Assembly (NCBI RefSeq): GCF_947507565.1
Contig: NC_089192.1
Location: 1,110,690-1,174,689 of the forward strand
Source: Oscarella lobularis
Taxonomy: Eukaryota
Reading direction: 5' to 3'
Length of the DNA stretch: 64,000 bases
The notes below the pieces were generated by a model. The model saw only the letters and a list, made by a program, of their open reading frames with translations. It was not told the origin of the DNA and did not search any database. This document shows, piece after piece, positions 843 through 20,489 of this stretch (the stretch's first letter is position 1; each line of letters begins with the position of its first letter). A program made the translations under genes and the position numbers.

Positions 843-1233
843 TTGATCGAGTTTCTTTGGTTCGCCAAGCGCGCACGTGACTGCTTCAACACCCGTACAG
901 GCAATCCCACCGCTCTCCAATTCTTCGACCATGAACGTCGAAGCGTGCGCCGATTCGGCCACGCTAGAGCGCGCGGCGTCGCGGAAAGCGACGCGCGCGC
1001 TCATCGACGCGATCGAGAGCGATCGCGCGACGAATACTGCATTGGAACGCGCCGAGCGACGTTGGAGGCAGCGCATATGAAATCGGCGCGGACGACGCGT
1101 CGACGGCCAATCGTTGCTCAGCGTTCGCCATCTACGCTCGCCGAAGAGGCGAGAAGGCGCGCATTGTAGCGCACGCTCTGAGAGCCAGTGACGTAGCAGG
1201 GATCTCAGTAGCACCAAGTTCATCTGTTCTCCA
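843..1233 (+). repeat. R4: conserved 5' flank and putative promoter of the ZYG11-like genes
   Basis: The same roughly 250-400 bp segment ('gcattggaacgcgccgagcgacgttggaggcNgcgcatatgaaatcggcg...gcgagaaggcgcgcattgtagcgcacgct') precedes every ZYG11-like ATG. Copies sit at about 843-1233, 4862-5105, 10630-11009 and 14655-14891. Confidence 0.6.
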
Positions 1234-3627
1234 ATGGCATCAAGTCTTGCCGATTTGTGCACGAGAAGCCTTTGCCGAACGGACTACGAGATCTCCTCGT
1301 TTCCATTTCCATCGATCGCCGAGAGAATCCTTCTCCACTCGTCGTCGCCGCGTCGACTGCCTCTTCCGGTCGCCAACGCGCTCTTCGAAGGCTTGGCGCA
1401 ACGAGGAAAACTGACGGAGAGAATTCTTCGCCTTCTCCTCGATCGAGATCGAGCGATCGTGACGTCACTTCCTCTCATTGGTCTCCGATCGATTCCTCAT
1501 GATGACGGAGAGACGACTTTCGCGCGTCGTCTTCGACAGCAAGCGTTCCTATGTCGCGTCGACGTATCGTTCAGTCATTGCGTCGGCGAACTTTCCGTGT
1601 CGCTTGTGAGCGCCTTTGCCGACACGTGCAAAGACACGTTGCTTTCGTTTTCGGCTAGTCACGTGACCGGAGATCTTGGCATTTCGCGACTGAAAGACTT
1701 TACGCGATTGCGTCACGTCGATCTTAGCTACACGTCGGCAACGCCGAGCGACATCGACGCCGTGTGCGGATCTTTGTCTCAGTTACGTCATCTCAACGTA
1801 TCCGGCACGGGTGTTAGTTGGTCTCAAGTCTTTGCTTCAGCACGAGGACTCAATAAATTGGAGTACCTTGGCATGAGCAATTTGGATTTTTTGACATTAG
1901 ACGAGTGGACATTAGCCTCTCAACCCTACTTCAGCAGTCAACGGATAACCGATTTCTTTTCCATCTTCACTAGGTTGTCGGCGCTAGACATTTCGGGAGT
2001 TAGATTGAAGGGATTGCCATTATTGGTAAACGCCGAGGCTTTTCTTTCGGCTACGTTTCGTGAAATTGTCACTGGGGCCCAGTCATTGACTCATCTCGAA
2101 ACGAGTTTTCCAGAACTCTCTGAAGTTGTAGCTGAATTGCAGGTCGGCAATCTATTTGACCAAATGAAGTATTTGGCTTATTATGGCAGCGTCATATCGA
2201 TTCCGGGTATTCTTTTGAACGCTGGGTGTCCTCGCTTTTTCTGCAGTCAAGTTTTATCTTCTGGGCCGTATAATTCAAGAGCGATATGCGAGAATAACGT
2301 CGATTTTGTGACGCTGGCTCTGAAAGGCGGACCGTCCTTTGGGATGACTGCTCTGAGAATTCCGTGGTTCTTCGATCGATGCGCGTCGTCATTGGATGCA
2401 GCCGATCGTCGTGACCTTCTTCGGCGCGTTATGTCGGCCGCTGTCGCCGTCGCCCGCTTCAAACTATTTCGCATCGCCGGCACGTTCGAGTCCAACGCCG
2501 AGACGTTTTTGATGAACGTTATTGATCTGAGAACAGCGCACAAGACGCATTGTCTCTCATGTTCAAAACCGTTGTTTAGGCCGAGACGCGGCTGTTGCAT
2601 TCTACCCGGAACGGTTCGTCGGCATCGTCGCTACGCCTTTGCCGGTGATTTTTCTGATTCGTTGATAAAGGGGCTGTGGGATCAGATGATTGAATCCTGT
2701 TTAGAAGCGGCTCTCAATCAACCTGCCGTTTTTCGACGCGACAGCAATGATCAAATCCTGTCCGCATTGTGCGCTGCGCTTTTCGTTACTCTTCCTCGAC
2801 CTCCGCTTCGGTTCGCTGCCTTGACGTTTTTTCTGATCGCGCTAACTGGAAAGGAAACTGGAACGCGACGTCTTTCCACTTGCAGAAAATGCGCTGATGA
2901 CGGCACGCCTATGTCGGTGGCACTAAAGTCGATTTTTGAGTCTCTTTCCGACAAAGAGCGTTGTGGGCTTGCGCTAGAAAAGATCTGGCTTGCTCCGGTG
3001 TGCAATCATGTGGAGGCGATATGCACGGAACTGGTAACATCATTGCTGGTTGCTGTAGATCAAGTATCTCTTTCTAGAATTCCTCTTCTCCATCGTGACA
3101 GTCGCCTTTTCTTCGACATCCTCTACTACATGTCCCGCGATCTGCCGGATCTGCAGCGGCGTTTGGTTCAAGACAGTAATCTGTTGACACTTCTGGAGTA
3201 CCACCGTCCAGAAGCGGAAAGATTAGATGCTGCATCGTCTCTGAGGCTGCTGATTATTCTAGCTGAGAACGAGTCTCTGAGATATCGTCTGCTTTCGAAG
3301 TCATCGTTGCAGATGCTCCTTGAATGCCATCCCTGTTTCGAGACCAGCTATCTTACTTGTCTACTTCTGCTGTGTGACGACGCTCATTGGCCGGCGGATG
3401 TGCTCTCTAAAGACGCAACGGCTTACAGAATGATTACATTGCGTGGCGACATGTTGACATCTTCTTTAGCCGAGGACACTCAGCGCTACAGGTATTCAAG
3501 CAATACTGTTGCACTTCTACAAGATATGGCTCGACGAACGGACGTTCCACCCCCAGTAGGCTGGTTTGGGATGCACGTTCTCTCAAGGATAGATCAGCGT
3601 GTACAGATAAACCCAGCTTGTATTTAG
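1234..3627 (+). CDS. ZYG11/ZER1-like LRR + ARM-like protein, paralog 1 (797 aa, single exon)
   Basis: Uninterrupted ORF starting at ATG 1234. The N-terminus 'SSLADLCTRSLCRT...FPSIAERIL' resembles the ZYG11B VHL/Cul2-box region 'SLLDICLNFLTT...FPQEVADRLL'. Central LRRs ('LRHVDLSYTSATPSDIDAVCGSLSQLRHLNVSGTGVS') resemble 'RLESLDISNTSITDITALL' of ZYG11B. The C-terminal half is helical and ARM-like. Three further paralogs are about 85-90% identical. The family assignment is tentative. Confidence 0.55.
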   Translation: MASSLADLCTRSLCRTDYEISSFPFPSIAERILLHSSSPRRLPLPVANALFEGLAQRGKLTERILRLLLDRDRAIVTSLPLIGLRSIPHDDGETTFARRLRQQAFLCRVDVSFSHCVGELSVSLVSAFADTCKDTLLSFSASHVTGDLGISRLKDFTRLRHVDLSYTSATPSDIDAVCGSLSQLRHLNVSGTGVSWSQVFASARGLNKLEYLGMSNLDFLTLDEWTLASQPYFSSQRITDFFSIFTRLSALDISGVRLKGLPLLVNAEAFLSATFREIVTGAQSLTHLETSFPELSEVVAELQVGNLFDQMKYLAYYGSVISIPGILLNAGCPRFFCSQVLSSGPYNSRAICENNVDFVTLALKGGPSFGMTALRIPWFFDRCASSLDAADRRDLLRRVMSAAVAVARFKLFRIAGTFESNAETFLMNVIDLRTAHKTHCLSCSKPLFRPRRGCCILPGTVRRHRRYAFAGDFSDSLIKGLWDQMIESCLEAALNQPAVFRRDSNDQILSALCAALFVTLPRPPLRFAALTFFLIALTGKETGTRRLSTCRKCADDGTPMSVALKSIFESLSDKERCGLALEKIWLAPVCNHVEAICTELVTSLLVAVDQVSLSRIPLLHRDSRLFFDILYYMSRDLPDLQRRLVQDSNLLTLLEYHRPEAERLDAASSLRLLIILAENESLRYRLLSKSSLQMLLECHPCFETSYLTCLLLLCDDAHWPADVLSKDATAYRMITLRGDMLTSSLAEDTQRYRYSSNTVALLQDMARRTDVPPPVGWFGMHVLSRIDQRVQINPACI

Positions 3628-3935
3628 GGCTCTAATATTTAGAGAAGGCTGCTCCTTGTCTCCACTAGAATTAGTGCTACAGGTAGATCGTGTCTGAGAT
3701 CAGAGATTCTTTTTATTTATTTTTTAAATTTAGGTTTATAACCCTTGTTTAGAATTATAACGTAGTGGGCGTATTTCTGCTACGTCTTGTCGCGACAAAT
3801 CTCAAACGTTTACCATCCGCTCAGCAAGAGACAGACAATGTAGAAAGTTACGGAAAACGCCTAAGCAAAAATAAGGTAGAAAAGCGTTGGCATGCACTAA
3901 ACAAACAGAGAATCGCGTACAGTCAGCTACGCGAG
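3628..3935. repeat. R5: shared 3' region between the convergent ZYG11-like and NHL-BTB genes
   Basis: Segment 'ctccactagaattagtgctacaggtagatcgtgtctgagatcagagattctttttatttattttttaaatttaggtttataacccttgtttagaattataa...' recurs at 3628-3935, 7494-7777, 13392-13724, 17286-17595, about 21066-21307, about 23950-24242 and about 26850-27146. It probably carries the 3' UTRs and polyadenylation signals of both genes. Confidence 0.5.
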
Positions 3936-4880
3936 TCATTTGCCAATGAGTCTCATTATTTCTGCTAATAAATTGACGCCAAGATTCTCCAACTTTTCAT
4001 CTTGGGATAGCTCCTTGTAGTGGCTCACGAAAAATTGCAGGCATTTCTCTCTCAAATCTCTAAAGCCGTACTTATCAGCAAGAAACAGATAATCAATAGC
4101 CGTTGCAGCTGAAACCGTCTTTGCCAAATAGGACATGCAGAAATCCCGCAGAGTGGAAATGAGAAAACGATCAGCCAATACCAATATATCCGGCATGTGG
4201 CTGCTGTATTTCTGTACGTCCAAGCAGCCAGTGAGAAGAAATGAAATGATTGCGTAGAACGATTCATAGGTAGCATCTTCAATAGCAGTTGGAGTGGATT
4301 CGGTCTCGGAAGATTTCCATTTCCACGAGAACATACTGTTGAAGTATTCGCTTCGAATGCAAAGAACCGATTTAGCGGTGACGGTGACGTGCTTTCCTTG
4401 AACTAAGAATACGGCTTTATCTGTAGAAACGATTTCTTCGTTGTCAATCAATTCCGCAAGATCATGTGAAAGTTCATCGAATGCTTTGAAGGAAGGAGGT
4501 GCAGCTTTTTGAAGGAAGGAGGTGCCACTCTCACTCTACGAACGGCCTTCTGCTCCGTAAAGTAAAGGTACCCCGACTTAGAATCAAAAAACAAATGACG
4601 AGGATAATACAATGACGCTAATTCGCCTTTGCCATCTGTAGACGCTGCCGCACCTGATCCGCAGAGAATTTCTTTTTCATTTGATGACAATGTCAGCTTG
4701 TAGATTCTATGCGAGAGATCAGAGAAGTAGACATTTCCGTCGTCGTCAACAGCAACACCATAAGGTGTATTGAGATTTTTTCAAACGGTTGAAACGTTGT
4801 GGTTTTTAATAAATCTTTCTGATAGCACCATTAGATCGGTCAGCCACATACACAGAACAGTCTGGTCCCACGGCTAATTG
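3936..4880 (-). pseudogene. NHL-BTB-BACK pseudogene fragment (BTB/BACK plus the last NHL blades; frameshifted, 5' part replaced by R4)
   Basis: ORF 3936..4451 encodes the BTB/BACK part ('DKAVFLVQGKHVTVTAKSVLCIRSEYFNSMF...'). The frame then switches to ORF 4448..4690. A TTAT insertion ('ggtttttaataaatctttc', about 4805) frameshifts blade 5. Homology ends at about 4880, where the R4 flank begins. Exons 1-2 are absent. The lesions are identical to the copy at 13725-14672. Confidence 0.6.
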
Positions 4881-5105
4881 ATCGTTGCATTGGAACGCGC
4901 CGAGCGACGTTGGAGGCGGCGCATATGAAATCGGCGGGAAAGCGCGGACGACGCGTCGACGGCCAATCGTTGCTCAGCGTTCGCCATCTACGGTAGGTAC
5001 ATGTACGCTCGCCGAAGCGGCGAGAAGGCGCGCATTGTAGCGCACGCTGTGAGTGACGGGACGGATCTTAGCAGGGATCTCTGTACCAAGTTCATCTGTT
5101 CTCCA

Positions 5106-7493
5106 ATGGCATCAAGTCTTGCCGATTTGTGCACGAGAAGCCTTTGCCGAACGGACTACGAGATCTCCTCGTTTCCATTTCCATCGATCGCCGAGAGAAT
5201 CCTTCTCCACTCGTCGTCGCCGCGTCGACTGCCTCTTCCGGTCGCCAACGCGCTCTTCGAAGGCTTGGCGCAACGAGGAAAACTGACGGAGAGAATTCTT
5301 CGCCTTTTCCTCAATCGCGATCGAGCAATGGTGACGTCACTTCCTCTCATTGGTCTCCGATCGATTCCTCGTGATGACGGAGAGACGACTTTCGTGCGTC
5401 GTCTTCAACAGCAAGCGTTCCTATGTCGCGTCGACGTATCGTTCAGTCATTGCGTCGGCGAACTTTCGGTTTCGCTTGTGAGCACCTTTGCCGACACGTG
5501 CAAAGACACGTTGCTTTCGTTTTCGGCTAGTCACGTGACCGGAGATCTTGGTATTTCGCGACTGAAAGACTTCACGCGATTGCGTCACGTCGATCTTAGC
5601 TACACGTCGGCGACGCCGAGCGACATCAACGCCGTGTGCGGCTCCTTGTGTCAGTTGCGTCATCTCGACGTATCCGGCACTGACGTTAGTTGGTATCACG
5701 TCTTTGGTTCGGCACGAGGACTCGATCAATTGGAGTACCTTGGCATGAGCGATTTGGTATTTTTGACATTAGACGAGTGGACGCTTGTCTCACAACCCTA
5801 CTTCAGCACTCGATGGATAACCAATTTCTTTTTGGTTACCACTAGGTTGTCTACACTCGACATTTCAGGAGTTATATGTAAGGGATTGCCATCAGACAAG
5901 TCTATTCTTTCAGCTGCATTTCATGAAATTGTCACTGGGGCACGGTCATTGACTCATCTCGAAACGAGTTTTCCAAAACTCCCTGAAGTTGTAGCTGGAT
6001 TGCAGCTCGGCAATCTATTTGACCAAATGAAGTATTTGGCTTATTATGGCGTCGTCACATCAATTCCAGATATTCTTTTGAACGCTGGGTGTCCTCGCTT
6101 TTTCTGCAGTACATCTTCTCGGCCACATCATTCAAGAGCGATAGACGTGAATAACGTCGATTTTGTGACGCTGGCTCTGAAAGGCGGACCGTCCTTTGGG
6201 ATGACTGCTCTGGGAATTCCGCGGTTATTTTATCGATGCGCGTTGTCATCGGATGCAGCCGATCGTCGTGACCTTCTTCGGCGCGTTATGTCGGCCGCTG
6301 TCGCCGTCGCCCGCTTCAAACTATTTCGCATCACCGGCACGTTCAAGTCCAACGCCGAGACGTTTTTGATATACGTTATTTATCTGAGAACAGCGCACAG
6401 GACGCATTGTCTCTTATGTTCAAAACCGTTGCCGAGACGCGGCTGTTGCTTTCGACCCAGACCGGTTCGTCGCTACGCCTTTGCCGATGATTTTTCTGAT
6501 TCATCGATAAAGGAGCTGTGGGATCAGATGGTTGAATCCTGTTTAGAAGCGGCTCTCAATCAACCTGCCGTTTTTCGACGCGACAGCAATGATCGAATTC
6601 TGTCTGCATTGTGCGCTGCGCTTTTCGTTACTCTTCCTCGACCTCCGCTTCGGTTCGCTGCCTTGACGTTTTTTCTGAACGCGCTAACTGGAAAGGAAAC
6701 TGGAGTTACGAGACGTCTTTCCACTTGCAGAAACTGCGCTGATGACGGCACGCCTGTGTCGGTGGCACTAAAGTCGATTTTTGAGTCTCTTTCCGACCAA
6801 GAGCGTCGTGGGCTTGCGCTAGAAAAGAACTGGCTTGCTCCGGTGTGCAATCACGTGGAGGCGATATGCACGGAACTGGGAACGTCATTGCTGGTTGCAG
6901 ATCGAACATTTCTTTCTAGAATTCCTCTTCTCAATCGTGACAGTCGCCTTTTCTTGGACATCCTCTACTACATGTCCCGTGATCTGCCGGATGTGCAGCG
7001 GCATTTGGTTCAAGACAGTAATCTGTTGACACTTCTGCCATTGTATTCATCGCCACCGGTGCACCACCACCGTCCAGAAGTGGAAAGATTAGATGCCGCG
7101 TCATCTCTGAGGGTACTGATTATTCTAGCTGAGAACGAGTCTCTGAGACATCGTCTGCTTTCGACGTCATCGTTGCAGATGCTCCTTGAATTTCATCCCT
7201 GTTTTGAGACCAGCTATCTTACTTGTCTACTTCTGCTGTGTGACGACGCTCCTTGGCCGGCGGATGTGCTCTCTAAAGACGCAATGGCTTACAGAATGAT
7301 TACATTGCGCGGCGACATGTTGACATCTTCTTTAGTAGAGGACACTCAGCGCTGCAGGTATTCAAGCAATACTGTTGCACGTCTACAAGATATGGCTGGA
7401 CGAAAGGACGTTCCACCCCCAGTAGGCTGGTTTGGGATGTACGTTCTCTCAAGGATGGATCAGCGTGTACAGATAAACCCAGCTTCTATTTAG
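5106..7493 (+). CDS. ZYG11/ZER1-like LRR + ARM-like protein, paralog 2 (796 aa from the conserved ATG)
   Basis: The ORF-track entry 5001..7493 starts earlier, but the conserved start 'MASSLADLC' is the ATG at 5106-5108. Otherwise colinear with paralog 1. Confidence 0.55.
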   Translation: MASSLADLCTRSLCRTDYEISSFPFPSIAERILLHSSSPRRLPLPVANALFEGLAQRGKLTERILRLFLNRDRAMVTSLPLIGLRSIPRDDGETTFVRRLQQQAFLCRVDVSFSHCVGELSVSLVSTFADTCKDTLLSFSASHVTGDLGISRLKDFTRLRHVDLSYTSATPSDINAVCGSLCQLRHLDVSGTDVSWYHVFGSARGLDQLEYLGMSDLVFLTLDEWTLVSQPYFSTRWITNFFLVTTRLSTLDISGVICKGLPSDKSILSAAFHEIVTGARSLTHLETSFPKLPEVVAGLQLGNLFDQMKYLAYYGVVTSIPDILLNAGCPRFFCSTSSRPHHSRAIDVNNVDFVTLALKGGPSFGMTALGIPRLFYRCALSSDAADRRDLLRRVMSAAVAVARFKLFRITGTFKSNAETFLIYVIYLRTAHRTHCLLCSKPLPRRGCCFRPRPVRRYAFADDFSDSSIKELWDQMVESCLEAALNQPAVFRRDSNDRILSALCAALFVTLPRPPLRFAALTFFLNALTGKETGVTRRLSTCRNCADDGTPVSVALKSIFESLSDQERRGLALEKNWLAPVCNHVEAICTELGTSLLVADRTFLSRIPLLNRDSRLFLDILYYMSRDLPDVQRHLVQDSNLLTLLPLYSSPPVHHHRPEVERLDAASSLRVLIILAENESLRHRLLSTSSLQMLLEFHPCFETSYLTCLLLLCDDAPWPADVLSKDAMAYRMITLRGDMLTSSLVEDTQRCRYSSNTVARLQDMAGRKDVPPPVGWFGMYVLSRMDQRVQINPASI

Positions 7494-7777
7494 GGCTCTA
7501 ATATTTAGAGAAGGCTGCTCCTTTTCTCTACTAGAATTAGTGCTACAGGTAGATCGTGTCTGAGATCAGAGATTCTTTTTATTTATTTTTTAAAATTTAG
7601 GTTTATAACCCTTGTTTAGAATTATAATGTAGCGAGGGTATTTCTGCTACATCTTCTCGCGACAAATCTCAAACATTTACCATTCGGATATTTTGAATTG
7701 CAGAAAACGCAGCTTAGCAAAAAAATAAGGCAGAAGTTGACAAACACAAACAGAGAGAATCGCGTCAGTTACGTGAG

Positions 7778-9370
7778 TTATTTGCCAATGAGTCTGATTA
7801 TTTCTGCTAATAACTTGACGCCAAGACTCTCAAACTTTTCATCTTGGCAAAGTACTTTGTAGTGAATCGCGACAAATTGCAGGCATTTCTCTCTCAAATC
7901 TCTAAAGCCGTAATTATCAGCAAGAGACAGATAATCAATAGCCGTTGCAGTCGAAACGGTCTTTGCCAAATAGGCCATGCAAAAATCACGCAGAGTGGAA
8001 ATGAGAAAACGATCAGCCAATATCAATATATCCGGCATGTTGCTGCTGTATTTCTGTACGTCCAAGCAGCCAGTGAGAAGAAATGAAATAATTGCGTAGA
8101 ACGATTCATAGGTAGCATCTTTGATAGAAATTGGATTGGATTCGGTCTCGGAAGATTTCCAATTTGACGAGAACATCCTGTTGAAGTAATCACTTCGAAT
8201 GCAAAGAACCGATTTAGCGGTGACGGTGACGTGCTTTCCTTGAACTAAGAATACGGCTTTATCTGCAGAAACGATTTCTTCGTTGTCGATCAATTGCGCA
8301 AGATCATGTGAAAGTCCGGCGTCATTAAATGCAGGAGGGGCTGCTTTTGCTGCCTCGAAGGAAGGAGGTGCCACTCTCACTCTACGAACGGCCTTCGGCT
8401 CAGTAAAGTAAAGGTACCCCGACTTGGAATCGAAAAACAAATGACGAGGATCTTTCAATGACGCTAATTGGCCTTTGCCATCTATAGACGCTGCTTCACC
8501 TGATCCGCAGAGAATTTCTTTTTCACTTGATGATGATGCCAGCTTGTAGATTCTACGCAAGCGATCAGAGAAGTAGACATTTCCGTCATCGTCAACAGCC
8601 ACACTATAAGGTTGGTTGAGATTTTTACAAACGGTTGAAACGTGGTGGTTTTTAATCTTTCTGATAGCACCATTTAATTGGTCAGCCACATACACAGAGC
8701 CGTCTGGTCCCACGGCTAATTGATTTGGGCTATTAAATTTGGCTTCAGCACAGTGACCATCAATGTTGCCTGGTTGGCCTGCGGAGCCTGCTAGCGTTGT
8801 TACGCGTCCATCAACCTCAATTCGACGTATTGCATGTCCGCCATGAGAAGACACTAAGACACTGCCATCTTGTAGTGCCACAATCCCCAATGGGTGATTG
8901 AATTGAGCTTCAGTAAGGCCTACTCCATCTCGTTCTCCACAGCTCCCATTGCCAGCTAATGTAGAGACGGTGTCACCACTCAGCTGCGAGAACGTTTTAT
9001 ACTCAGAACCGTGGCACATCTGTATCATTACCTTTCGAATGCGACAGTTGGCGTAGTCAGCAACAAAGAGACAAGAGCCGGACGAGGCAATGCCTCCTGG
9101 TTTGGAAAATGTCGCCGAGTTCAAAGTACCATCTTGGTGACCGGATCGGCTGGGAATCCCAGCATGGGTCGAGAGTTCCTGAGAGGAAAGATCAACTTTC
9201 CATATGCATTGTTGACCGTGATCTGCGACACACATTTGATCGTCTAAAATCGTGATTCCCCACAAGCACGAGAACGACTCGTGACGTGACGCAGTCGAGA
9301 GATATCCGTCTAAAAACGGAAAAGAGGCACGCTCAAATGTTTTTCACAAACGGAACTCCTTACATTCCAT
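7778..9370 (-). CDS. NHL(6 blades)-BTB-BACK protein, array copy 2 (3 exons)
   Basis: Exon 1 coding part is only 'ATGGAAT' (plus 9364-9370, rc) with donor GTAAGG. Intron 1 is 9310-9363 (54 nt, acceptor ttttccgtttttag). Exon 2 is 9309-9032. Intron 2 is 8984-9031 (48 nt, GTAATG...TCTCGCAG; in-frame and stop-free, so the ORF track reads through it). Exon 3 is 8983-7778. NHL blades include 'LAVGPDGSVYVAD', 'YSVAVDDDGNVYFSD' and 'GAIRKI'. The BTB domain includes 'DKAVFLVQGKHVTVTAKSVLCIRSDYFNRMF...ATYESFYAIISFLLTG', followed by a BACK-like helical region. The track 'M' at 9265 is a TTG codon. Confidence 0.7.
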
Positions 9371-10620
9371 TTAGGAACGCGCAGAAGGTGTACACTCAAA
9401 TGATGCGAGTGACAACACGCGCGTTAGATCTTGGCAGTCAACGTTTCCTCGCCGTCATGTTATTCCGAAGCTCTCTGCTTCTAACGGTTCTTTTCCGATG
9501 TTTGACCGGATTCGAAACCCAGATTCGTACGTCGACCGTCAGTTCGAACTCCCCGCTGATCGTTCGACGACTTCCCACCCTAGATTCGGCGCTACGACAC
9601 TTCGATACGCTTCGTACAGACGAAATAAAGCATTCTAGCATCGATCCCTCGCGCAGAAGAATGGAGGTGTCGATCCTCGGACGGTACAAGAACATCCAAG
9701 TGTCCTGGAAGATCCATTCGAATTCTTTTCGCTGTAGAAATTTTTCTCTGCACCTCTCGAACGACAATAACCTGTTGGCACCCACTTTTCGCGCAGTCGT
9801 TTCAGACGAAACAGATAGCAAGTCTTTGAGAAAATCAACCGAAAAGAGTTTTACATTGGAGAGGGTGGGATAGCTCATTTCCTTTCGTGGGTCTTTTTAA
9901 TTGTTAGAATTTCTCTCCTGGCGGCTAGCGCCAATTTTGTACGAGTCCAAAGTTCATAGAAATTCTCTCCTGGCTACAGGGATTTTCTATAATAACATAG
10001 AATTTCCCTTCTAATTTTTAAATTCAAAATGCCTTCTCTTTTAATCTAATGTTTTTTTCCAGAGGAAGACGGATCTTCTGTTTCGGCTCACATCGATTCG
10101 GAACAATTGGTCACAGCAACGATTCTCAGTCACGACGATGCGTACTATATCGAAGTAGGTGCACGTGCACTACTGTCTTATAGAGAAAATCACTTTCAAA
10201 AAATTCCTTAGCCGTCGCATCGACACATCGCAGAGCCGCACGATTTTCACATGATCGCCTATAGGAGATCGGACGTCGTGCGCAATTACGGCGAAAGAAA
10301 GGATAACGGAAGGTGATAAAAGAATTGTCTTAGAACTTTCCGAGGGTTATGCTGCCTCGAATATTTTTCCCTTTTAGTTTCTCTGGTCGTTTCTGTGGAG
10401 TCGACTCGGAAGAGCATCACGTAATTCATAATAACGGTGAAACTTCATCAATGAGAGTAGGAGGCAAGATTGTCTTATTGGTCTTGATAGATTTTTCTCA
10501 CTCGTGGTCGCGACTTCGGCGCGCCGTTCCCGCGCGACACACGTGCCCCATCGCACTCGTCGCCGATCACAAATTTTATCAGACTCTCGGTGGACGAAGT
10601 TTTTCTGGGACCATCAATTT
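9286..10620 (+). repeat. R1-R2-R3: co-duplicated copy of the ADAM10/17-like 5' exons, orphaned from the rest of the gene
   Basis: R1 holds the + strand ORF '[22 protein letters not shown]...' (signal peptide) then '[16 protein letters not shown]...[25 protein letters not shown]'. This resembles the human ADAM17 prodomain segment 'LDSLLSDYDILSLSNI...[25 protein letters not shown]'. R2 (about 10073-10200) reads '[37 protein letters not shown]', matching '[32 protein letters not shown]'. R3 (about 10370-10620) reads '[11 protein letters not shown]...[37 protein letters not shown]', matching the cysteine-switch, furin-site and catalytic-start segment 'KVCGYLKVDNEE...[27 protein letters not shown]'. 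Other copies sit at 19713-20170 (R1 part), 22830-23890 (R1+R2), 25760-26800 (R1+R2) and 28690-30040 (R1+R2+R3, contiguous with the gene body). Confidence 0.6.
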
Positions 10621-11009
10621 TATGGTATCCGTGCTTCAACACCCGCGCGCCCAGCGGAGAATAGTACGGGTAATCCCACCGCTCTCCGATTCATCGACCA
10701 TGAACGTCGAAGCGAGCGCCGATTCGGCCACGCTAGAGCGCGCGGCGTCGCCGAAAGCGACGCGCGCGCTCGTCGACGCGATCGAGAGCGATCGCGCGAC
10801 GAATACTGCATTGGAACGCGCCGAGCGACGTCGGCGGGAAAGCGCGGACGACGCGTCGACGGCCAATCGTTGCTCAGCGTTCGCCATCTACGGTATGTAC
10901 ATGTACGCTCGCCGAAGAGGCGAGAAGGCGCGCATTGTCTAGCGCACGCTCTAAGAGCCAGTGACGGATCTTAGCAGGGGATCTCAGTACCAAGTTCATC
11001 TGTTCTCCA

Positions 11010-13391
11010 ATGGCTTCAAGTCTTGCCGATTTGTGCACAAGAAGCCTTTGCCGAACGGACTACGAGATCTCCTCGTTTCCATTTCCAACGATATCCGAGA
11101 GAATCCTTCTCTACCCGTCGTCGCCGCGTCGACTGCCTCTTCCGGTCGCCAACGCGCTCTTCGAAGGCTTGGCGCAACGAGCAAAACTGACGGAGAGAAT
11201 TCTTCGCCTTTTCCTCGATCGAGATCGAGCGATGGTGACGTCACTTCCTCTCATTGGTCTCCGATCGATTCCTCGTGATGACGGAGAGACGACTTTCGTG
11301 CGTCGTCTTCGACAGCAAGCGTTCCTATGTCGCGTCGACGTATCGTTCAGTCATTGCGTCGGCGAACTTTCCGTGTCGCTTGTGAGCGCCTTTGCCGACA
11401 CGTGCAAAGACACGTTGCTTTCGTTTTCGGCTAGTCACGTGACCGGAGATCTTGGCATTTCGCGACTGAAAGACTTTACGCGATTGCGTCACGTCGATCT
11501 TAGCTACACGTCGGCGACGCCGAGCGACATCGACGTCGTGTGCGGCTCCTTGTGTCAGTTACGTCATCTCGACGTATCCGGCACTGACGTTAGTTGGTAT
11601 CGCGTCTTTGGTTCGGCGCGAGGTCTCGATCAATTGGAGTACCTTGGCATGAGCGATTTGGTATTTTTGACATTAGACCAGTGGACGCTTGTCTCTCAAC
11701 CCTACTTCAGCACTCGATGGATAACCAATTTCTTTTTGGCTACCACTAGGTTGTCTACGCTCAACATTTCAGGAGTTATATGTAAGGGATTGCCATCAGA
11801 CAAGTCTATTCTTTCAGCTGCATTTCATGAAATTGTCACTGGGGCACGGTCATTGACTCATCTCGAAACGAGTTTTCCAGAACTCCCTGAAGTTGTAGCT
11901 GGATTGCAGCTCGGCAATCTATTTGACCAAATGAAGTATTTGGCTTATTATGGCATCGTCACATCAATTCCAGATATTCTTTTGAACTCTGGGTGTCCTC
12001 GCTTTTTCTGCGATACATCTTCTGGGCTACATTGTTCAAGAGCGATAGACGTAAATAACGTCGATTTTGTGACGCTGGCTCTGAAAGGCGGACCGTCCTT
12101 TGGGATGACTGCTCTGGGAATTCCGTGGTTATTTGATCAATGCGCGTCGTCATTGGATGCGGCCGATCGTCGTGACCTTCTTCGGCGCGTTATGTCGGCC
12201 GCTGTCGCCGTCGCCCGCTTCAAACTATTTCGCATCACCGGCACGTTTGAGTCCAACGCCGAGACGTTTTTGATATACGTTATATGTCTGAGAACAGCGC
12301 ACAGGACGCATTGTCTCTTATGTTCAGAACCGTTGTTTAGGCCGAGACGCCGCTGTTGCATTCTACCCGGACCGGTTCGTCGGCATCGTCGCTACGCCTT
12401 TGCTGGTGATTTTTCTGATTCGTCGATAAAGGAGCTGTGGGATCAGATGATTGAATCCTGTTTAGAAGCGGCTCTCAGTCAACCTGCCGTTTTTCGACGC
12501 GACAGCAATGATCGAATCCTGTCTGCATTGTGCGCTGCGCTTTTCGTTGCTCTTCCTCGACCTCCGCTTCGGTTCGCTGCCTTGACGTTTTTTCTGAACG
12601 CGCTAACTGGAAAGGAAACTGGAACGAGACGTCTTTCCACTTGCAAAAAATGCGGTTATGACGGCACGTTGCCTATGTCGGTGGCACTAAAGTCGATTTT
12701 TGAGTCTCTTTCCGACCAAGAGCGTCGTGGGCTTGCGCTAGAAAAGAACTGGCTTGCTTCGGTGTGCAATCACGTGGAGGCGATGTGCACGGAACAGGGA
12801 ACATTATTGCTGGGTGCACATCGAATATCTCTTCCTCTTCTCAATCGTGAAAGTCGCCTTTTCTTTGACATCCTCTACTACATGTCCCGTGATCTGCCGG
12901 ATGTGCAGCGACGTTTGGTTCAAGACAGTAATCTGTTGACACTTCTGCCATGGTATTCATGGCCGCCGGTGAACCACTGTCCAGAAGTGGAAAGATTAGA
13001 TGCTGCGTCATCTCTGAGGGTACTGATTATTCTAGCTGAGAACGAGTCTCTGCGACATCGTCTGCTTTTTTCGACGTCATTGTTGCATATGCTCCTTGAA
13101 TTTCATCCCTGTTTTGAGACCAGCTATCTTACTTGTCTACTTCTGCTGTGTGACGACGCTCATTGGCTGGCGGATGTGCTCTCTAAAGACGACATGGCTT
13201 ACAGAATGATTACATTGCGTGGCGACATGTTGACATCTTCTTTAGCCGAGGACACTCATCGCTACAGGTATTCAAGCAATACTGTTGCACTTCTACAAGA
13301 TATGGCTCGACGAACGGACGTTCCACCCCCTGTAGGCTGGTTTGGGATGTACGTGCTCTCAAGGATGGATCAGCGTGTACAGATACAGTAA
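11010..13391 (+). CDS. ZYG11/ZER1-like LRR + ARM-like protein, paralog 3 (793 aa)
   Basis: ATG at 11010. Uninterrupted ORF colinear with paralogs 1 and 2. Confidence 0.55.
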   Translation: MASSLADLCTRSLCRTDYEISSFPFPTISERILLYPSSPRRLPLPVANALFEGLAQRAKLTERILRLFLDRDRAMVTSLPLIGLRSIPRDDGETTFVRRLRQQAFLCRVDVSFSHCVGELSVSLVSAFADTCKDTLLSFSASHVTGDLGISRLKDFTRLRHVDLSYTSATPSDIDVVCGSLCQLRHLDVSGTDVSWYRVFGSARGLDQLEYLGMSDLVFLTLDQWTLVSQPYFSTRWITNFFLATTRLSTLNISGVICKGLPSDKSILSAAFHEIVTGARSLTHLETSFPELPEVVAGLQLGNLFDQMKYLAYYGIVTSIPDILLNSGCPRFFCDTSSGLHCSRAIDVNNVDFVTLALKGGPSFGMTALGIPWLFDQCASSLDAADRRDLLRRVMSAAVAVARFKLFRITGTFESNAETFLIYVICLRTAHRTHCLLCSEPLFRPRRRCCILPGPVRRHRRYAFAGDFSDSSIKELWDQMIESCLEAALSQPAVFRRDSNDRILSALCAALFVALPRPPLRFAALTFFLNALTGKETGTRRLSTCKKCGYDGTLPMSVALKSIFESLSDQERRGLALEKNWLASVCNHVEAMCTEQGTLLLGAHRISLPLLNRESRLFFDILYYMSRDLPDVQRRLVQDSNLLTLLPWYSWPPVNHCPEVERLDAASSLRVLIILAENESLRHRLLFSTSLLHMLLEFHPCFETSYLTCLLLLCDDAHWLADVLSKDDMAYRMITLRGDMLTSSLAEDTHRYRYSSNTVALLQDMARRTDVPPPVGWFGMYVLSRMDQRVQIQ

Positions 13392-13724
13392 ACCCAGCTT
13401 GTATTTAGGGCTCTAAGGCTGCTCCTTGTCTCCACTAGAATTAGTGCTACAGGTAGATCGTGTCTGAGATCAGAGATTCTTTTTATTGATTTTTTAAATT
13501 TAGGTTTATAACCCTTGTTTAGAATTATAATGTAGCGAGCGTATTTCTGCTACATGTTGTCGCGACAAATCTCAAACGTTTACCATTCACATACCGCTCA
13601 GCAAGAGACAGACAATGTAGAAAGTTACAGAAAACGCCTAAGCAAAAAATAAGGCAGAAAAGCGTCGAGAAACAAAGCACGCACTAAACAAACAGAGAGA
13701 ATCGCGTACAGTCAGCTACGTGAG

Positions 13725-14672
13725 TCATTTGCCAATGAGTCTCACTATTTCTACTACTAACTTGACGCCAAGACTCTCAAACTTTTCATCTTGGCAGAGT
13801 ACTTTGTAATTGCTCACGACAAATTGCAGGCATTTCTCTCTCAAATGTCTAAAGCCGTACTTATCGGCAAGAGACAGATAATCAATAGCCGTTGCGGTTG
13901 AAACGGTCTTTGCCAAATAGGCCATGCAAAAATCACGCAGAGTGGAAATGAGAAAACGATCAGCCAATACCAATATATCCGGCATGTTGTTGCTGTACTT
14001 CTGTACGTCCAAGGAGCCAGTGAGAAGAAATGAAATGATTGCGTAAAACGATTCATAGGTAGCATCTTTTACAGAAATTGGAGTGGATTCGGTCTCGGAA
14101 GATTTCCAATTCGACGAGAACATACTGTTGAAGTAATCACTTCGAATGCAAAGAACCGATTTAGCGGTAACGGTGACGTGCTTTCCTTGAACTAAGAATA
14201 CGGCTTTATCTGTAGAAAGGATTTCTTCGTTGTCAATCAATTCCGCAAGATCATGTGAAAGTTCATCAAATGCTTTGAAGGAAGGAGGTGCTGCTTTTTT
14301 GAAGGAAGGAGGTGCCACTCTCACTCTACGAACGGCCTTCTGCTCCGTAAAGTAAAGGTACCCCGACTTAGAATCAAAAAACAAATGACGAGGATAATAC
14401 AATGACGCTAATTCGCCCTTGCCATCTGTAGACGCTGCCGCACCTGATCCGCAGAGAATTTCTTTTTCATTTGATGACAATGTCAGCTTGTAGATTCTAT
14501 GCGAGAGATCAGAGAAGTAGACATTTCCGTCGTCGTCAACAGCAACACCATAAGGTGTATTGAGATTTTTACAAACGGTTGAAACGTTGTGGTTTTTAAT
14601 AAATCTTTCTGATAGCACCATTAGATCGGTCAGCCACATACACAGAACAGTCTGGTCCCACGGCTAATTGAT
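13725..14672 (-). pseudogene. NHL-BTB-BACK pseudogene fragment (duplicate of the 3936-4880 fragment)
   Basis: ORF 13725..14639 covers NHL blades 5-6 and BTB/BACK. The same TTAT insertion and TAA as at about 4805 recur here ('agaaagatttattaaaaacc', about 14610). Upstream homology ends at the R4 junction (about 14655-14672). There are no 5' exons. Confidence 0.6.
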
Positions 14673-14891
14673 CGTTGCATTGGAACGCGTCGAGCGACGT
14701 TGGAGGCGGCGCATATGAAATCGGCGGGAAAGCGCGGACGACGCGTCGACGGCCAATCGTTGCTCAGCGTTCGCCATCTACGGTACATGTACGCTCGCCG
14801 AAGCGGCGAGAAGGCGCGCATTGTAGCGCACGCTGTGAGTGACGGGACGGATCTTAGCAGGGATCTCTGTACCAAGTTCATCTGTTCTCCA

Positions 14892-17285
14892 ATGGCATCA
14901 AGTCTTGCCGATTTGTGCACGAGAAGCCTTTGCCGAACGGACTACGAGATCTCCTCGTTTCCATTTCCATCGATCGCCGAGAGAATCCTTCTCCACTCGT
15001 CGTCGCCGCGTCGACTGCCTCTTCCGGTCGCCAACGCGCTCTTCGACGGCTTGGCGCGACGAGGAAAACTGACGGAGAGAATTCTTCGCCTTTTCCTCGA
15101 TCGCGATCGAGCGATGGTGACGTCACTTCCTCTCATTGGTCTCCGATCGATTCCTCGTGATGACGGAGAGACGACTTTCGTGCGTCGTCTTCGACAGCAA
15201 GCGTTCCTATGTCGCGTCGACGTATCGTTCAGTCATTGCGTCGGCGAACTTTCCGTGTCGCTTGTGAGCGCCTTTGCCGACACGTGCAAAGACACGTTGC
15301 TTTCGTTTTCGGCTAGTCACGTGACCGGTGATCTTGGTATTTCGCGACTGAAAGACTTCACGCGATTGCGTCACGTCGATCTTAGCTACACGTCGGCAAC
15401 GCCGAGCGACATCAACGCCGTGTGTGGCTCCTTGTCTCAGTTGCGTCATCTCGACGTATCCGGCACTGACGTTAGTTGGTATCACGTCTTTGGTTCGGCG
15501 CGAGGACTCGATCAATTGGAGTACCTTGGCATGAGCGATTTGGTATTTTTGACATTAGACGAGTGGACGCTTGTCTCTCAACCCTACTTCAGCACTCGAT
15601 GGATAACCGATTTCTTTTTGGTTACCACTAGGTTGTCTGCGCTCAACATTTCAGGAGTTAATATTAAGGGATTGCCATTAGACGAGTCTATTCTTTCAGC
15701 TGCATTTCATGAAATTGTCACTGGGGCACGGTCATTGACTCATCTTGAAACGAGTTTTCCAGAACTCCCTGAAGTTGTAGCTGGATTGCAGCTCGGCAAT
15801 CTATTTGACCAAATGAAGTATTTGGCTTATTATAGGGCCGTCACATCGATTCCGGATATTCTTTTGAACGCTGGGTGTCCTCGCTTTTTCTGCAGTAGTA
15901 GTAGTATGTCTTATGGGTTACATTATTCAAGAGCGATGTACGTGAATAACGTCGATTTTGTGACGCTGGCTCTGAAAGGCGGACCGTCCTTTTGGGTGAC
16001 TGTTCTGAGAATTCCGTGGTTATTTGATCAATGCACGTTGTCGTCATTGGATGCAGCCGATCATCGTGACCTTCGGAGCGTTATGTCGGCCGCTGTCGCC
16101 GTCGCCCGCTTCAAACTATTTCGCGTCACCGGCTCCAGCGCCGACGCCGAGCCGTTTTTGACGGACGTTATTTGTCTGAGAACAGAGCACAGGGCGTATT
16201 GTCTCCTATGTTCAAAACCGTTTAGGCTGGGACTCGGCTGTTTCATTCAACTCGGAACGATTCGTCGCAACTCCTTTGCCGGTGATTTTTTTGAATCTGA
16301 TTCGTTGATAAAGGAACTGTGGGATCAGATGATTGAATCCTGTTTAGAAGCGGCTCTCAATCAACCTGCCGTTTTTCGACACGACAGGAATGATGAAATC
16401 CTGTCTGCATTGTGCGCTGCGCTTTTCGTTACTTTTCCTCGACCTCCTCTTCGGTTCGCTGTCTTGACGTTTTTTCTGAACGCGCTAACTGGAAAGGAAA
16501 CTGGAACGCGACGTCTTTCCACTTGCCAAAAATGCGCTGATGACGGCAGGCTGCCTATGTCGGTGGCACTAAAGTCGATTTTTGAGTCTCTTTCCGACAA
16601 AGAGCGTTGTGGGCTTGCGCTAGGAAAGAACTGGCTTGCTCCTGTGCGCGATCACGTGGAGGCGATAGGCACAGAAATGGAAACATCATCGCTGGTTGCT
16701 GTTTATCGCAACGATATAGATCGAGTATCTCTTTCTACTAGTAGAATTCCTCTTCTCCATCGCCTTTTCTTGGACATCCTCTACTACATATCCCGCGATC
16801 TGCCGGATGTGCAGCGGCGTTTGGTTCAAGACAGTAATCTGTTGACACTTCTGGAGCACCAGGGAAGATTAGATGCTGCATCATCTCTGAGGCTGCTGAT
16901 TATTCTAGCTGAGAACGAGTCTCTGAGACATCATCTGCTTTCGAAGTCATCGTTGCAGATGCTCCTTGAATGCCATCCCTGTTTCGAGACCAGCTATCTT
17001 ACTTGTCTACTTCTGCTGTGTGATGACGCTCATTGGCCGGTGAATGTGCTTTCTAAGGACGCAATGGCTTACAGAATGATTTCATTGCGCGGCGACATGT
17101 TGACATCTTCTTTAGCCGAGGACACTCAGCGCTACAGGTATTCAAGCAATACTGTTGCACTTCTACAAGATATGGCTCGACGAACGGACGTTCCACCAGT
17201 AGGCTGGTTTGGGATGCACGTTCTCTCAAGGATGGATCAGCGTGTACAGATAAACCCAGCTTGTATTTATGGCTCTAATATTTAG
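14892..17285 (+). CDS. ZYG11/ZER1-like LRR + ARM-like protein, paralog 4 (798 aa from the conserved ATG)
   Basis: The track ORF 14700..17285 starts at a TTG codon. The conserved start 'MASSLADLC' is ATG 14892-14894. Confidence 0.55.
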   Translation: MASSLADLCTRSLCRTDYEISSFPFPSIAERILLHSSSPRRLPLPVANALFDGLARRGKLTERILRLFLDRDRAMVTSLPLIGLRSIPRDDGETTFVRRLRQQAFLCRVDVSFSHCVGELSVSLVSAFADTCKDTLLSFSASHVTGDLGISRLKDFTRLRHVDLSYTSATPSDINAVCGSLSQLRHLDVSGTDVSWYHVFGSARGLDQLEYLGMSDLVFLTLDEWTLVSQPYFSTRWITDFFLVTTRLSALNISGVNIKGLPLDESILSAAFHEIVTGARSLTHLETSFPELPEVVAGLQLGNLFDQMKYLAYYRAVTSIPDILLNAGCPRFFCSSSSMSYGLHYSRAMYVNNVDFVTLALKGGPSFWVTVLRIPWLFDQCTLSSLDAADHRDLRSVMSAAVAVARFKLFRVTGSSADAEPFLTDVICLRTEHRAYCLLCSKPFRLGLGCFIQLGTIRRNSFAGDFFESDSLIKELWDQMIESCLEAALNQPAVFRHDRNDEILSALCAALFVTFPRPPLRFAVLTFFLNALTGKETGTRRLSTCQKCADDGRLPMSVALKSIFESLSDKERCGLALGKNWLAPVRDHVEAIGTEMETSSLVAVYRNDIDRVSLSTSRIPLLHRLFLDILYYISRDLPDVQRRLVQDSNLLTLLEHQGRLDAASSLRLLIILAENESLRHHLLSKSSLQMLLECHPCFETSYLTCLLLLCDDAHWPVNVLSKDAMAYRMISLRGDMLTSSLAEDTQRYRYSSNTVALLQDMARRTDVPPVGWFGMHVLSRMDQRVQINPACIYGSNI

Positions 17286-17595
17286 AGAAGGCTGCTCCTT
17301 GTCTCCACTAGAATTAGTGCTACAGGTAGATCGTGTCTGAGATCAGAGATTCTTTTTATTTATTTTTTAAATTTCGGTTTATAACCCTTGTTTAGAATTA
17401 TAACGTAGTGGGCGTATTTCTGCTACATCTTGTCGCGACAAATCTCAAAGGTTTACCATTCGCATACCGCTCAGCAAGAGACAGACAATGTAGAAAGTTA
17501 CAGAAAACGCAACTAAGCAAAAAGGCAGAAAAACGTTGAGAAACAAGGCGTGCACTAAACAAACAGAGAGAATCACGTCCAGTCAGCTACGTGAG

Positions 17596-19157: not shown

Positions 19158-20222
19158 TACATTCCATTTGACCAGGGTCCGGCTGGGCAAGAAAACTGGC
19201 TGGGAAGGGCAGGGCTAGAGAGCACGGATCTTAGCTTAGACGAATGCCCAGGGGCGTCGCCACCGGCCCGGCCGGTCCGGCGCGAGCCGGGCCAATGTTT
19301 TCCAAAATAAAAACTATTTTTAGCAAGATAAACCGAGCCAAAATAGAATCTGTTAGAAAGGACATTGCATACGTGTACGATCATAGTGAAACCCGAAAGT
19401 TGGGCTTCCCGGACATAGCTACGGTATGTCCGAAGTTCGACATAAAGTCCGACTCTGACAGTTTGGTCGATTTGAGTATAATAAAGTTTTCTAAAGATAC
19501 AACAGAAAGAGCACGTGAATCCAACAAAGTGAACTTATTTAATGATTCTTCATTCTCTAAGTATTTACGATAAACATACATGAAACCTAATTGCACAAGT
19601 GGGCGTGGTCGAAAAAATTTTTCGCGGGCGCAAAACTACTCTCTCTCTATAAGCCGGGCCAAACGAAAAATCGATGCGACGCCCCTGATGCCTAGCTCTG
19701 TGCCTAAAAGAGTGACAACACGCGCGTTAGAAGTCAAAGCTTCCTGAGCCTTCCTCGCCATCTGCTTCTAACGGTTCTCTTCCCGTGTTTGACCGGATTC
19801 GAAACGCAGATTTGTACGTCGACCATCAGTTTGAAGTCCCCGCGCGATCGTTCGACGACTTCCACCCTAGATTCGGCGCTACGACACTTCCAACTTCGAT
19901 ACGCTTCGTACAGGCGAAACAAAGCATTCTAGCATCGATTCCTCTTGCAGAAGAATGGAGGTGTCGATCCTTGGACGGTACAAGAACATCCAAGTGTCCT
20001 GGAAGATCCATTCGAAGTCTTTTTGCTAGAAAGTTTGCTCTGAATCTCTTTTGGCACCCAATTTTCTCGCAGTCGTTTCCGACGAAGTAGGCAGATCGCA
20101 AGATTTTGAGAAAATCAACCGAAAAGAGTTTACATTGGAGAGGGTGGGATAGCTCATTTCCTTTCACATATTTGTGGCTTTTTTAATTCATAGAATTACT
20201 CTCTTCGCTAGAGCCAATTTCT

Positions 20223-20489
20223 ATGAGTCCGAGGGCTCATAGATTGTCTCCCCTGGCTATAGAGCCAATTTCATACAAATCGAGGTCTCATAGAATTTCT
20301 CTCCTGGCTATAGAGCCAATTTCTATGAGGCAAGGTCTCACAGAATTTTGCTCCTGCAATTACTATGAGACAAGGTCTCATAGAACTTCTCTCCTGGCTT
20401 TCTATGAGTCAAGGGCTCATAGAATTTCTCTCCGCCTGGCTACAGCTAATTTCTATGAGTCCAGACGAAGCAGAACGCTATCTGGTTAG
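20223..20489. repeat. Minisatellite, about 44-48 bp unit x about 5.5
   Basis: Unit 'tctcatagaattTctctcctggctatagagccaatttctatgagNcNagg'. A shorter 2-unit version of the same motif occurs in every R1/R2 junction (for example 9900-9990 and 23460-23550). Confidence 0.7.

Follow-up and report, generated by a model that had tools for sequence, protein, structure and literature searches.

Partial copies of the ADAM17 5' region in a tandem array of NHL-BTB genes in the sponge Oscarella lobularis

Composition of the array

We analyzed a 64-kb stretch of DNA (the window) from Oscarella lobularis (a homoscleromorph sponge), in which a tandem array of NHL-BTB genes also contains repeated copies of the 5' region of a gene for the protease ADAM17 (TACE). 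The window is eukaryotic in organization with very short introns, and it encodes several O. lobularis RefSeq proteins exactly. Over 20.6 kb (349-20942), it shows 100% identity with ptg000061l, the primary contig in ENA assembly ERZ18545485. Our literature search found no paper on this locus.

Self-comparison of the window and a listing of its open reading frames (ORFs) revealed a compound tandem array built from three component types: a plus-strand gene for a protein of ~800 amino acids (aa), an NHL-BTB gene on the minus strand whose product has Pfam matches to NHL, TEN_NHL, BTB, and BACK, and a block from the 5' end of ADAM17 on the plus strand (Table 1). By self-BLAST, we observed a larger repeat unit of ~9.8 kb, with 895-10626 matching 10664-20262, and a smaller repeat unit of ~2.9 kb that occurs three times within 21080-29732. 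The segment 9001-10626, which includes the first ADAM17 block, recurs at 22531-23887 (86% identity), 25463-26787 (91%), and 28390-30040 (90%) and in part at 19710-20262 (80%). We refer to the five ADAM17 blocks as c1 to c5 in the order of units 1 to 5, to their exons as E1 to E7, and to c1 to c4, which are separated from any gene body, as orphans.

Table 1. Positions of array components, ADAM17 exons, and associated features in the window
Feature	Positions	Strand	Basis
ADAM17 (TACE) orthologue, 23 exons, 746 aa	28858-32501 (stop codon ends 32501)	+	gene model
c5, E1-E7, parent of the orphan copies	28858-28927, 28985-29084, 29142-29272, 29474-29565, 29623-29723, 29792-29850, 29905-30038	+	
Orphan c1, E1-E7	9457-9526, 9584-9683, 9738-9864, 10063-10154, 10212-10312, 10378-10436, 10491-10624	+	c5 projection, tblastn
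Orphan c2, equivalents of E1-E3 only	19750-19813, 19871-19977, 20030-20143	+	c5 projection, tblastn
Orphan c3, E1-E5	23014-23083, 23118-23235, 23293-23423, 23619-23723, 23778-23878	+	c5 projection
Orphan c4, E1-E5	25923-25992, 26050-26143, 26199-26329, 26528-26619, 26678-26778	+	c5 projection
c1 duplication junction and read-through, C-terminal part of XP_065843709.1	10625-10942	+	self-BLAST breakpoints, model reconstruction
NHL-BTB first coding exon ATGGAAT, donor GTAAGG, unit 1	9364-9370	-	sequence, RefSeq NHL-BTB starts
NHL-BTB first coding exon, unit 5, GC donor (ATGGAAT/GCAAGG)	28742-28748	-	
Divergent intergenic region, unit 1, 86 bp, putative shared promoter	9371-9456		alignment; promoter role by inference
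488-bp insertion splitting the unit 2 NHL-BTB/ADAM intergenic region	19223-19710		sequence
NHL-BTB, full copies	5' ends at 9370, 19167, 22905, 25833, 28748	-	ORF listing, self-comparison
NHL-BTB 3' fragments, BTB/BACK part only, between copies of the ~800-aa gene	3660-4882, 13430-14672	-	
NHL-BTB, two older distal copies, ~80% identical at the DNA level	57205-58827, 59688-61256	-	
~800-aa single-ORF gene, four copies, part of the larger unit	1234-3627, 5001-7493, 11010-13391, 14700-17285	+	

A single complete ADAM17 gene

A preliminary description of this DNA, made from the sequence alone, had proposed that the block beside the NHL-BTB genes is composed of ADAM-type 5' exons and is not an anonymous repeat, and it had suggested a tblastn search with the N-terminal 450 aa of ADAM17 or ADAM10 as a test. 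This identification held. The N-terminal 450 aa of Oscarella pearsei ADAM17 matched exactly five places in the 64 kb (9508-10636, 19940-20131, 23114-23876, 25947-26776, and 28882-31147), with E-values reaching 1e-42 (1.7e-42 for c1) and 5e-106. Three independent comparisons, with O. pearsei ADAM17, with human ADAM17 structures, and with Pfam, agreed on the ADAM17 identity of the copies. Rather than the three repeats (R1-R2-R3) that had been named, the block consists of seven small exons separated by introns of ~55 nucleotides (nt).

Only the most downstream block is contiguous with a gene body, as had been stated, with 28858-30038 continuing into a gene of 23 exons and 746 aa. The body resumes with exon 8 at 30093 and not at 30127 as first given. 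To refine the spliced model of this copy and its downstream exons, we compared it with O. pearsei ADAM17, a transcript-derived sequence (EP00118_P006568, P0005), and with RefSeq models. An earlier model that treated 28858-29084 and 29792-30038 as single exons read through an in-frame TAA, and the comparison showed two further introns of ~55 nt. In the refined model, all splice sites are GT-AG, and the introns measure 48 to 76 nt with one exception of 201 nt.

The predicted protein is 60% identical to O. pearsei ADAM17 and colinear with it from Met1. The spliced model aligned to human ADAM17 (8snl_A) over residues 38-728, in a single continuous alignment that covers human residues 31 to 703, propeptide included (E=1.1e-103), whereas the best ADAM10 match was weaker (E=1.2e-52). 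The top database homologues bear the name ADAM 17-like. Pfam detected Reprolysin_2 (E=3e-33) and Reprolysin_5 (E=3.5e-31) in the model, and Pep_M12B_propep reached 24.2 bits on the fragment alone, for which the cutoff is 23.7; the Pfam ADAM17_MPD model gave no score on the same protein. The M12B zinc-binding motif HExxHxxGxxHD is present, with its E-I residues depending on an inferred 6-nt microexon. Exon 6 contains the cysteine-switch region, with FCG opposite human PKVCGY, and exon 7 encodes a furin-type site, RLRR (RVKRR in human), followed by the start of the catalytic domain. The signal peptide was assigned by eye only. Judged by its predicted product, c5 with the gene body is an ADAM17 orthologue, with prodomain, catalytic, disintegrin-like, membrane-proximal, and transmembrane parts and a closer relation to ADAM17 than to ADAM10.

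Two details of this gene were also observed. The HEIGH motif is apparently split by two introns (51 nt and 58 nt) that flank the microexon AAATTG (30738-30743, plus strand), which would supply the catalytic Glu and the following Ile according to the sequence and to SHELGHNWG in O. pearsei. Skipping of this microexon would remove the catalytic Glu and leave the frame unchanged. Intron 3 (29273-29473), the sole long intron at 201 nt, contains a repeat motif of ~40 to 50 bp (CATAGAATTTCTCTCCTGGC...) that is expanded in orphan c2 to a minisatellite of 3 to 3.4 copies (20188-20433).

Content and lesions of the orphan copies

To establish the exon content of each orphan, the c5 exons were projected onto each copy. 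All four orphans retain introns, and each is truncated relative to the parent gene. Homology to ADAM17 stops after exon 3 in c2, after exon 5 in c3 and c4, and after exon 7 in c1, with no ADAM-like sequence beyond, so that the catalytic domain is absent from every orphan. Among the orphans, c1 alone has the exons that encode the cysteine switch, furin site, and catalytic start. The preliminary statement that each copy encodes the region from the signal peptide to the start of the catalytic domain therefore stands for c1 and c5; c3 and c4 contain E1-E5 only, and c2 contains E1-E3 without an ATG.

The lesions differ from copy to copy. In c1, whose ADAM start codon begins at 9457 and not at 9461 as first reported, every splice site is intact, and a 4-nt deletion in E3 (~9822) causes a frameshift leading to a premature stop. 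The ATG of c2 is deleted, and this copy is further disrupted by a stop codon and by three indels (-6, +7, and -17 nt). In c3, intron 1 is shortened to 34 nt, E2 contains an 18-nt insertion, a nonsense change (R93*) is present, and E4 has lost its acceptor and gained 13 nt. The splice sites of c4 are intact, and two deletions in E2 (5 nt and 1 nt) place 11 codons out of frame before the frame is restored. The c4 product, which lacks the cysteine-switch exon, matched the human ADAM17 propeptide (8snm_A) on its own (E=1.6e-6), and its diagnostic peptides are KHQSLARKNEVSILGR and FFKLHHPATDR.

Head-to-head arrangement of the NHL-BTB and ADAM17 start regions

The minus-strand ATGGAAT exon that had been noted in unit 1 is present as claimed and is followed by a 54-nt intron (9310-9363) and by exon 2, which begins at 9309, with coding sequence extending down to 7778. 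The same exon was found in six NHL-BTB copies (9364-9370, 19161-19167, 22899-22905, 25827-25833, 28742-28748, and 61250-61256), each time before an intron of ~52 to 54 nt and an in-frame exon. The RefSeq proteins XP_065843702, XP_065843703, and XP_065843704 begin with MEYGSVSTV..., which corresponds to the ATGGAAT exon spliced to the next. In unit 5, beside the functional ADAM17 gene, the GC donor of the NHL-BTB copy may be weakened.

The divergent start codons of NHL-BTB and ADAM17 are separated by 86 bp in c1, 108 bp in c3, 89 bp in c4, and 109 bp in c5. A spacing of about 90 to 110 bp had been proposed for every unit; unit 2 departs from it with a gap of 582 bp owing to an insertion of 488 bp. 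Close to each of its ends (19249-19260 and 19676-19687), this insertion has one arm of a perfect 12-nt inverted repeat. We found it only once in the window, and both alternate haplotigs of the array lack it. It looks like a polymorphic small nonautonomous DNA transposon similar to miniature inverted-repeat transposable elements (MITE-like).

A bidirectional promoter is usually defined by position, as the region between divergent genes whose transcription start sites are less than ~1 kb apart. Units 1, 3, 4, and 5 have divergent 5' ends less than 1 kb apart, and it is reasonable, from position, to regard the short NHL-BTB/ADAM17 intergenic region as a putative shared bidirectional promoter. A 22-mer at 9407-9428 (GAGTGACAACACGCGCGTTAGA) is kept in all five copies with 0 or 1 mismatch, whereas none would be expected by chance, and it is the sole hint of a conserved element. 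A scan for sigma-70 promoters and terminators gave nothing, with models unsuited to a eukaryote. The pairing is also less general than had been thought. The ADAM block was said to accompany every NHL-BTB gene, and we found ADAM sequence paired with five of nine NHL-BTB copies or fragments, with none at the two distal copies (57-61 kb) or at the two 3' fragments.

Gene models that span the duplication junctions

The orphans had been described as having nothing downstream. Instead, c1 abuts the 5' region of another gene, and the RefSeq models of both c1 and c4 continue beyond the junctions. At the c1 junction, homology to ADAM17 intron 7 stops at 10626, and homology to the start of the unit (895) begins at 10664; the c4 junction lies at about 26787. 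XP_065843709.1, an "uncharacterized protein" of 190 aa, was rebuilt exactly from 10251-10312, 10378-10436, and 10491-10942. It starts at an internal Met in E5 of c1, continues through E6 and E7, and reads past the junction into the 5' region of the ~800-aa gene. Pfam found no domain in this protein. XP_065843708.1, an "ADAM 17-like protease" of 192 aa, corresponds exactly to E1-E5 of c4 joined to two recruited exons (27007-27069 and 27118-27145). Both recruited exons fall within the 3' flank of the following NHL-BTB gene (opposite strand), and the stop codon of the model ends one base before the stop codon of that gene. These two proteins thus span the junctions at 10626/10664 and ~26787 exactly; the juxtaposition is genomic, and both proteins are gene models only.

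Two homology searches and an exact look-up of the 746-aa model turned up no O. lobularis protein in the protein collection that corresponds to the intact ADAM17 body. Among the O. lobularis proteins of the searched collection, the name "ADAM 17-like protease" belongs only to the 192-aa product of c4. Since c4 bears the ADAM17 name and the intact gene is unmatched, studies of sponge sheddases or of Notch- and EGFR-pathway proteases could mis-score ADAM17 in O. lobularis. The practical value of these observations is mainly this annotation warning, a possible gap or hazard at ADAM17.

As a separate observation on the existing models, RefSeq NHL-BTB isoform X1 (P0125, XP_065843702.1) is a cross-unit chimera, in which unit 4 (24243-25833) supplies the N-terminal part and unit 3 (from 21308) the BTB part at the C terminus. 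The transcript implied by this model (21308-25833, minus strand) would run antisense through orphan c3.

Haplotype differences and unequal crossing-over

The ORF P0002 located three haplotigs of the region in ENA assembly ERZ18545485: atg000076l (L001), ptg000061l (L002), and atg000821l (L003). Both alternate haplotigs, L001 and L003, contain c1 and further copies in unchanged order. Three versions of one 10-kb stretch differed pairwise by ~1.2 to 1.6%, which suggests three or more haplotypes in the sequenced material; one "alternate" contig might instead represent a paralogous region.

The 4-nt deletion that frameshifts c1 is common to all three haplotypes. In L003, c4 has the 5-nt deletion alone, with no compensating 1-nt deletion, and is consequently frameshifted with many stops, indicating that the open c4 frame of the window is not a maintained feature. 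We considered this open frame as a sign of function and rejected it as the main reading due to the frameshift in the alternate haplotig. L003 also lacks the sequence corresponding to window 14673-22960 (~8 kb) except for a unit-2-like NHL-BTB 5' part, and its join consists of a hybrid ADAM fragment with a c2-like 5' half (no ATG) and a c3-like 3' half (R93* and the 13-nt insertion). The loss of this unit together with the c2/c3 hybrid is direct evidence of unequal crossing-over in the array, in this case inside the ADAM fragments. This finding bears out the preliminary proposal that the array was built by unequal recombination with the ADAM 5' region as part of the unit, and the array is still changing through such exchange between haplotypes.

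Taken as a whole, the earlier observation of ADAM 5' exons in the array was real and largely accurate, though overstated in scope and detail, and its interpretation was partly supported. The disabling lesions in c1, c2, and c3 and the frameshift of c4 in another haplotype make it less likely that the orphans yield truncated, secreted prodomain peptides, as had been suggested.

Substitution patterns in the functional and orphan copies

Copy-specific substitutions were assigned by parsimony in a four-way alignment of c1, c3, c4, and c5. In c5, we counted 4 changes in 483 exon sites, all of them synonymous, and 10 changes in 347 intron sites. Because these exon changes are synonymous only and rarer than those in introns, they fit purifying selection. 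Exons of the orphans changed at least as fast as their introns, with 20 nonsynonymous changes (R93* among them) and 17 synonymous ones in total, all of these being small counts. The orphans are thus unprocessed partial pseudogenes in their retained introns, truncation, disabling lesions, and relaxed constraint.

Origin of the orphan copies

We consider it very probable that the orphans are partial pseudogenes, or gene relics, left by tandem segmental duplication of a divergent NHL-BTB/ADAM17 pair. The ancestral state would have been one head-to-head pair, with NHL-BTB on the minus strand, ADAM17 on the plus strand, and start codons ~100 bp apart. Segmental tandem duplications would then have amplified NHL-BTB and, in the larger unit, also the ~800-aa gene. 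Their right-hand breakpoints would have fallen inside ADAM17, in intron 5 for the 2.9-kb unit (giving c3 and c4) and in the first bases of intron 7 for the 9.8-kb unit (giving c1), and each new unit would therefore have received the intergenic region with exons 1-5 or 1-7 and not the remainder of the gene. Orphan c2 sits at the equivalent place in the second large unit and would since have been cut back to exons 1-3. The most downstream copy alone would have stayed joined to exons 8-23 and would be the working gene. The upstream copies would have decayed without coding constraint through frameshifts, a nonsense codon, loss of an ATG, and a transposon-like insertion, with nonallelic recombination and gene conversion between units still altering copy number and generating hybrids. 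The NHL-BTB 3' fragments at 3660-4882 and 13430-14672 indicate that truncation at unit boundaries is general in the array.

Several observations weigh against the orphans being simple relics free of constraint. Their ratio of nonsynonymous to synonymous changes (20:17) is below the ~2-3:1 of strict neutrality, and exon 7 of c1 is identical to that of c5 at 134 of 134 positions while the flanking introns differ. These two findings could reflect residual constraint. Gene conversion from c5 would explain them equally, and we prefer it given the strongly mosaic identity between units. In c1 and c4, every splice site has survived, and the frame of c4 is open in the haplotype of the window. Furthermore, in the comparison between units, the ADAM region (9404-10320) of units 1, 3, 4, and 5 is 93 to 97% alike, versus 81 to 93% for the adjacent NHL-BTB 5' coding region (8935-9370), a difference for which a fast-evolving NHL-BTB N terminus or gene conversion homogenizing the ADAM region are possible causes. 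Finally, gene conversion has blurred divergence among the copies. The copies themselves, their exon content and lesions, the breakpoints, the contrast in selection, and the structural differences of the haplotypes are observed directly, and from these we infer the order of the duplications, promoter activity, and transcription.

The greater similarity of the ADAM region would also be expected if the orphans were retained as regulatory DNA, with the ADAM17 start region serving as a promoter or enhancer required by each duplicated NHL-BTB gene, in line with the ADAM-type divergent promoter that the preliminary description had every NHL-BTB gene inherit. Such a role would agree with the 86- to 109-bp spacing of start codons in four units, with RefSeq NHL-BTB isoforms whose start is the ATGGAAT exon of unit 3 or unit 4, and with a 22-mer upstream of the ADAM ATG that persists even in the diverged c2. 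We nevertheless consider it unlikely. The distal NHL-BTB copies (57-61 kb) have an ATGGAAT exon with no ADAM fragment upstream. Unit 2 tolerates both the 488-bp intergenic insertion and the loss of a block beside the NHL-BTB ATG, one alternate haplotype has a whole unit deleted, and the higher similarity itself can arise from gene conversion. Moreover, the copies are young (intron identity, 93 to 97%), and their retention needs no selection. That the copies are an assembly artefact, with falsely expanded repeats or haplotypes placed in tandem, has a negligible probability: tandem arrays are prone to misassembly and the region is present in three versions in the ENA assembly, but the copies differ by 3 to 20% with many indels, far above the 1.2 to 1.6% between haplotigs, the primary contig is identical over 20.6 kb, and two alternate haplotigs independently show c1 and more copies in the same order.

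Two further possibilities concern transcripts and proteins of the orphans. Some orphans might be new functional genes, with c4 encoding a secreted prodomain inhibitor or decoy and c1 forming a chimera with the ~800-aa gene. In c4, a start codon and a hydrophobic N terminus resembling a signal peptide precede an open 192-aa frame with intact splice sites that has its own RefSeq model and matches the ADAM17 propeptide; the isolated TACE prodomain is reported to be a specific inhibitor in mammals (PMC5159831); and in c1, exon 7 has an open frame through the junction (XP_065843709.1). The c4 prodomain, however, includes the 11-codon out-of-frame patch and has no cysteine-switch exon, and c4 is frameshifted in L003. 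Due to the fixed frameshift in exon 3 of c1, XP_065843709.1 starts at an internal Met without a signal peptide, and it has no Pfam domain. With orphan exon substitution rates not below intron rates, we regard this explanation as very improbable. It is extremely improbable that the orphans act as alternative 5' exon clusters of the real ADAM17, with exon 5 or 7 splicing to a downstream exon 6 or 8. The copies are on the same strand upstream of the body, their donors are intact and their phases compatible, and RefSeq NHL-BTB isoform X1 is already modelled as a cross-unit splice, but an in-frame product could come from c4 only and in one haplotype, the RefSeq model of c4 ends in the next unit and is not joined to the body, and the transcript would have to cross an entire NHL-BTB gene in antisense.

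Under the duplication of a divergent pair, some orphans may still yield junction-spanning transcripts, because a start region and intact splice sites persist in them; the two RefSeq models have the form of such transcripts. Such transcripts would most likely be nonfunctional by-products. We see only a very small chance that c4 is expressed as a secreted stand-alone ADAM17 prodomain modulating ADAM17 or that orphan start regions drive chimeric transcripts, for example from c1 into the ~800-aa gene, which would then gain ADAM17-like regulation. If either were true, the array would display an early step in the birth of a new gene from partial duplication.

Relation to known systems

Tandem-duplication junctions in Drosophila yakuba produce partial duplicates, chimeric genes, and "recruited non-coding sequence" (Rogers et al. 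2017, PMC5460883). As in D. yakuba, a breakpoint within a gene has here copied the 5' part and start region beside foreign downstream sequence, and transcript models cross the junctions, with c4 recruiting two 3' exons and c1 entering the 5' region of the next gene. In contrast to D. yakuba, the O. lobularis array represents a repeated process with four orphans, most of them disabled, and the transcripts are known as models only.

The orphans resemble unprocessed pseudogenes of other tandem arrays in their retained introns, truncation at unit boundaries, lesions, mosaic identity, and copy number varying by haplotype. Unlike the usual pseudogenes of arrays, the relic in O. lobularis is the 5' end of the divergent neighbour of the amplified gene and appears to have been carried along passively. 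Like bidirectional head-to-head pairs, NHL-BTB and ADAM17 are divergent with closely spaced start codons; unlike such pairs, one unit is split by an insertion, and the pair is known here by position alone. Regarding ADAM17/TACE and its inhibitory prodomain (PMC5159831), the parent gene is a full orthologue, and the orphans code for the signal peptide together with most of the prodomain, with c1 additionally resembling ADAM17/TACE in its cysteine switch, furin site, and first catalytic-domain residues. The orphans differ in having no catalytic, disintegrin, membrane-proximal, or transmembrane parts and in being mostly out of frame, and they are fragments and not family members.

When divergent genes lie ~100 bp apart, amplification of one inevitably copies the 5' end of the other. 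The phenomenon is an ordinary by-product of segmental duplication, of a known kind, and raises no new biological question; the array provides a clean example, dated by its lesions, of a neighbour's 5' end copied along.

Other features of the window

The preliminary account of the locus did not include the third family of the array, the plus-strand ~800-aa ORF gene of the larger unit. A Pfam search with this protein gave no domain; judged by eye, it resembles proteins with leucine-rich repeats. Upstream of the copy at 11010, there may be a further coding exon (MNVEAS...AFAIYG, 10700-10893). One of the distal NHL-BTB copies corresponds to the RefSeq protein "RCC1 and BTB domain-containing protein 1-like" (P0133), and the second lies head-to-head, at ~185 bp, with the unrelated plus-strand ORF 61441-62754, so that NHL-BTB genes function beside differing upstream neighbours. 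Convergent with the 3' end of ADAM17, the minus strand at 33159-34523 encodes a single-ORF protein of 454 aa with two Spondin_N domains (E=1.5e-86).

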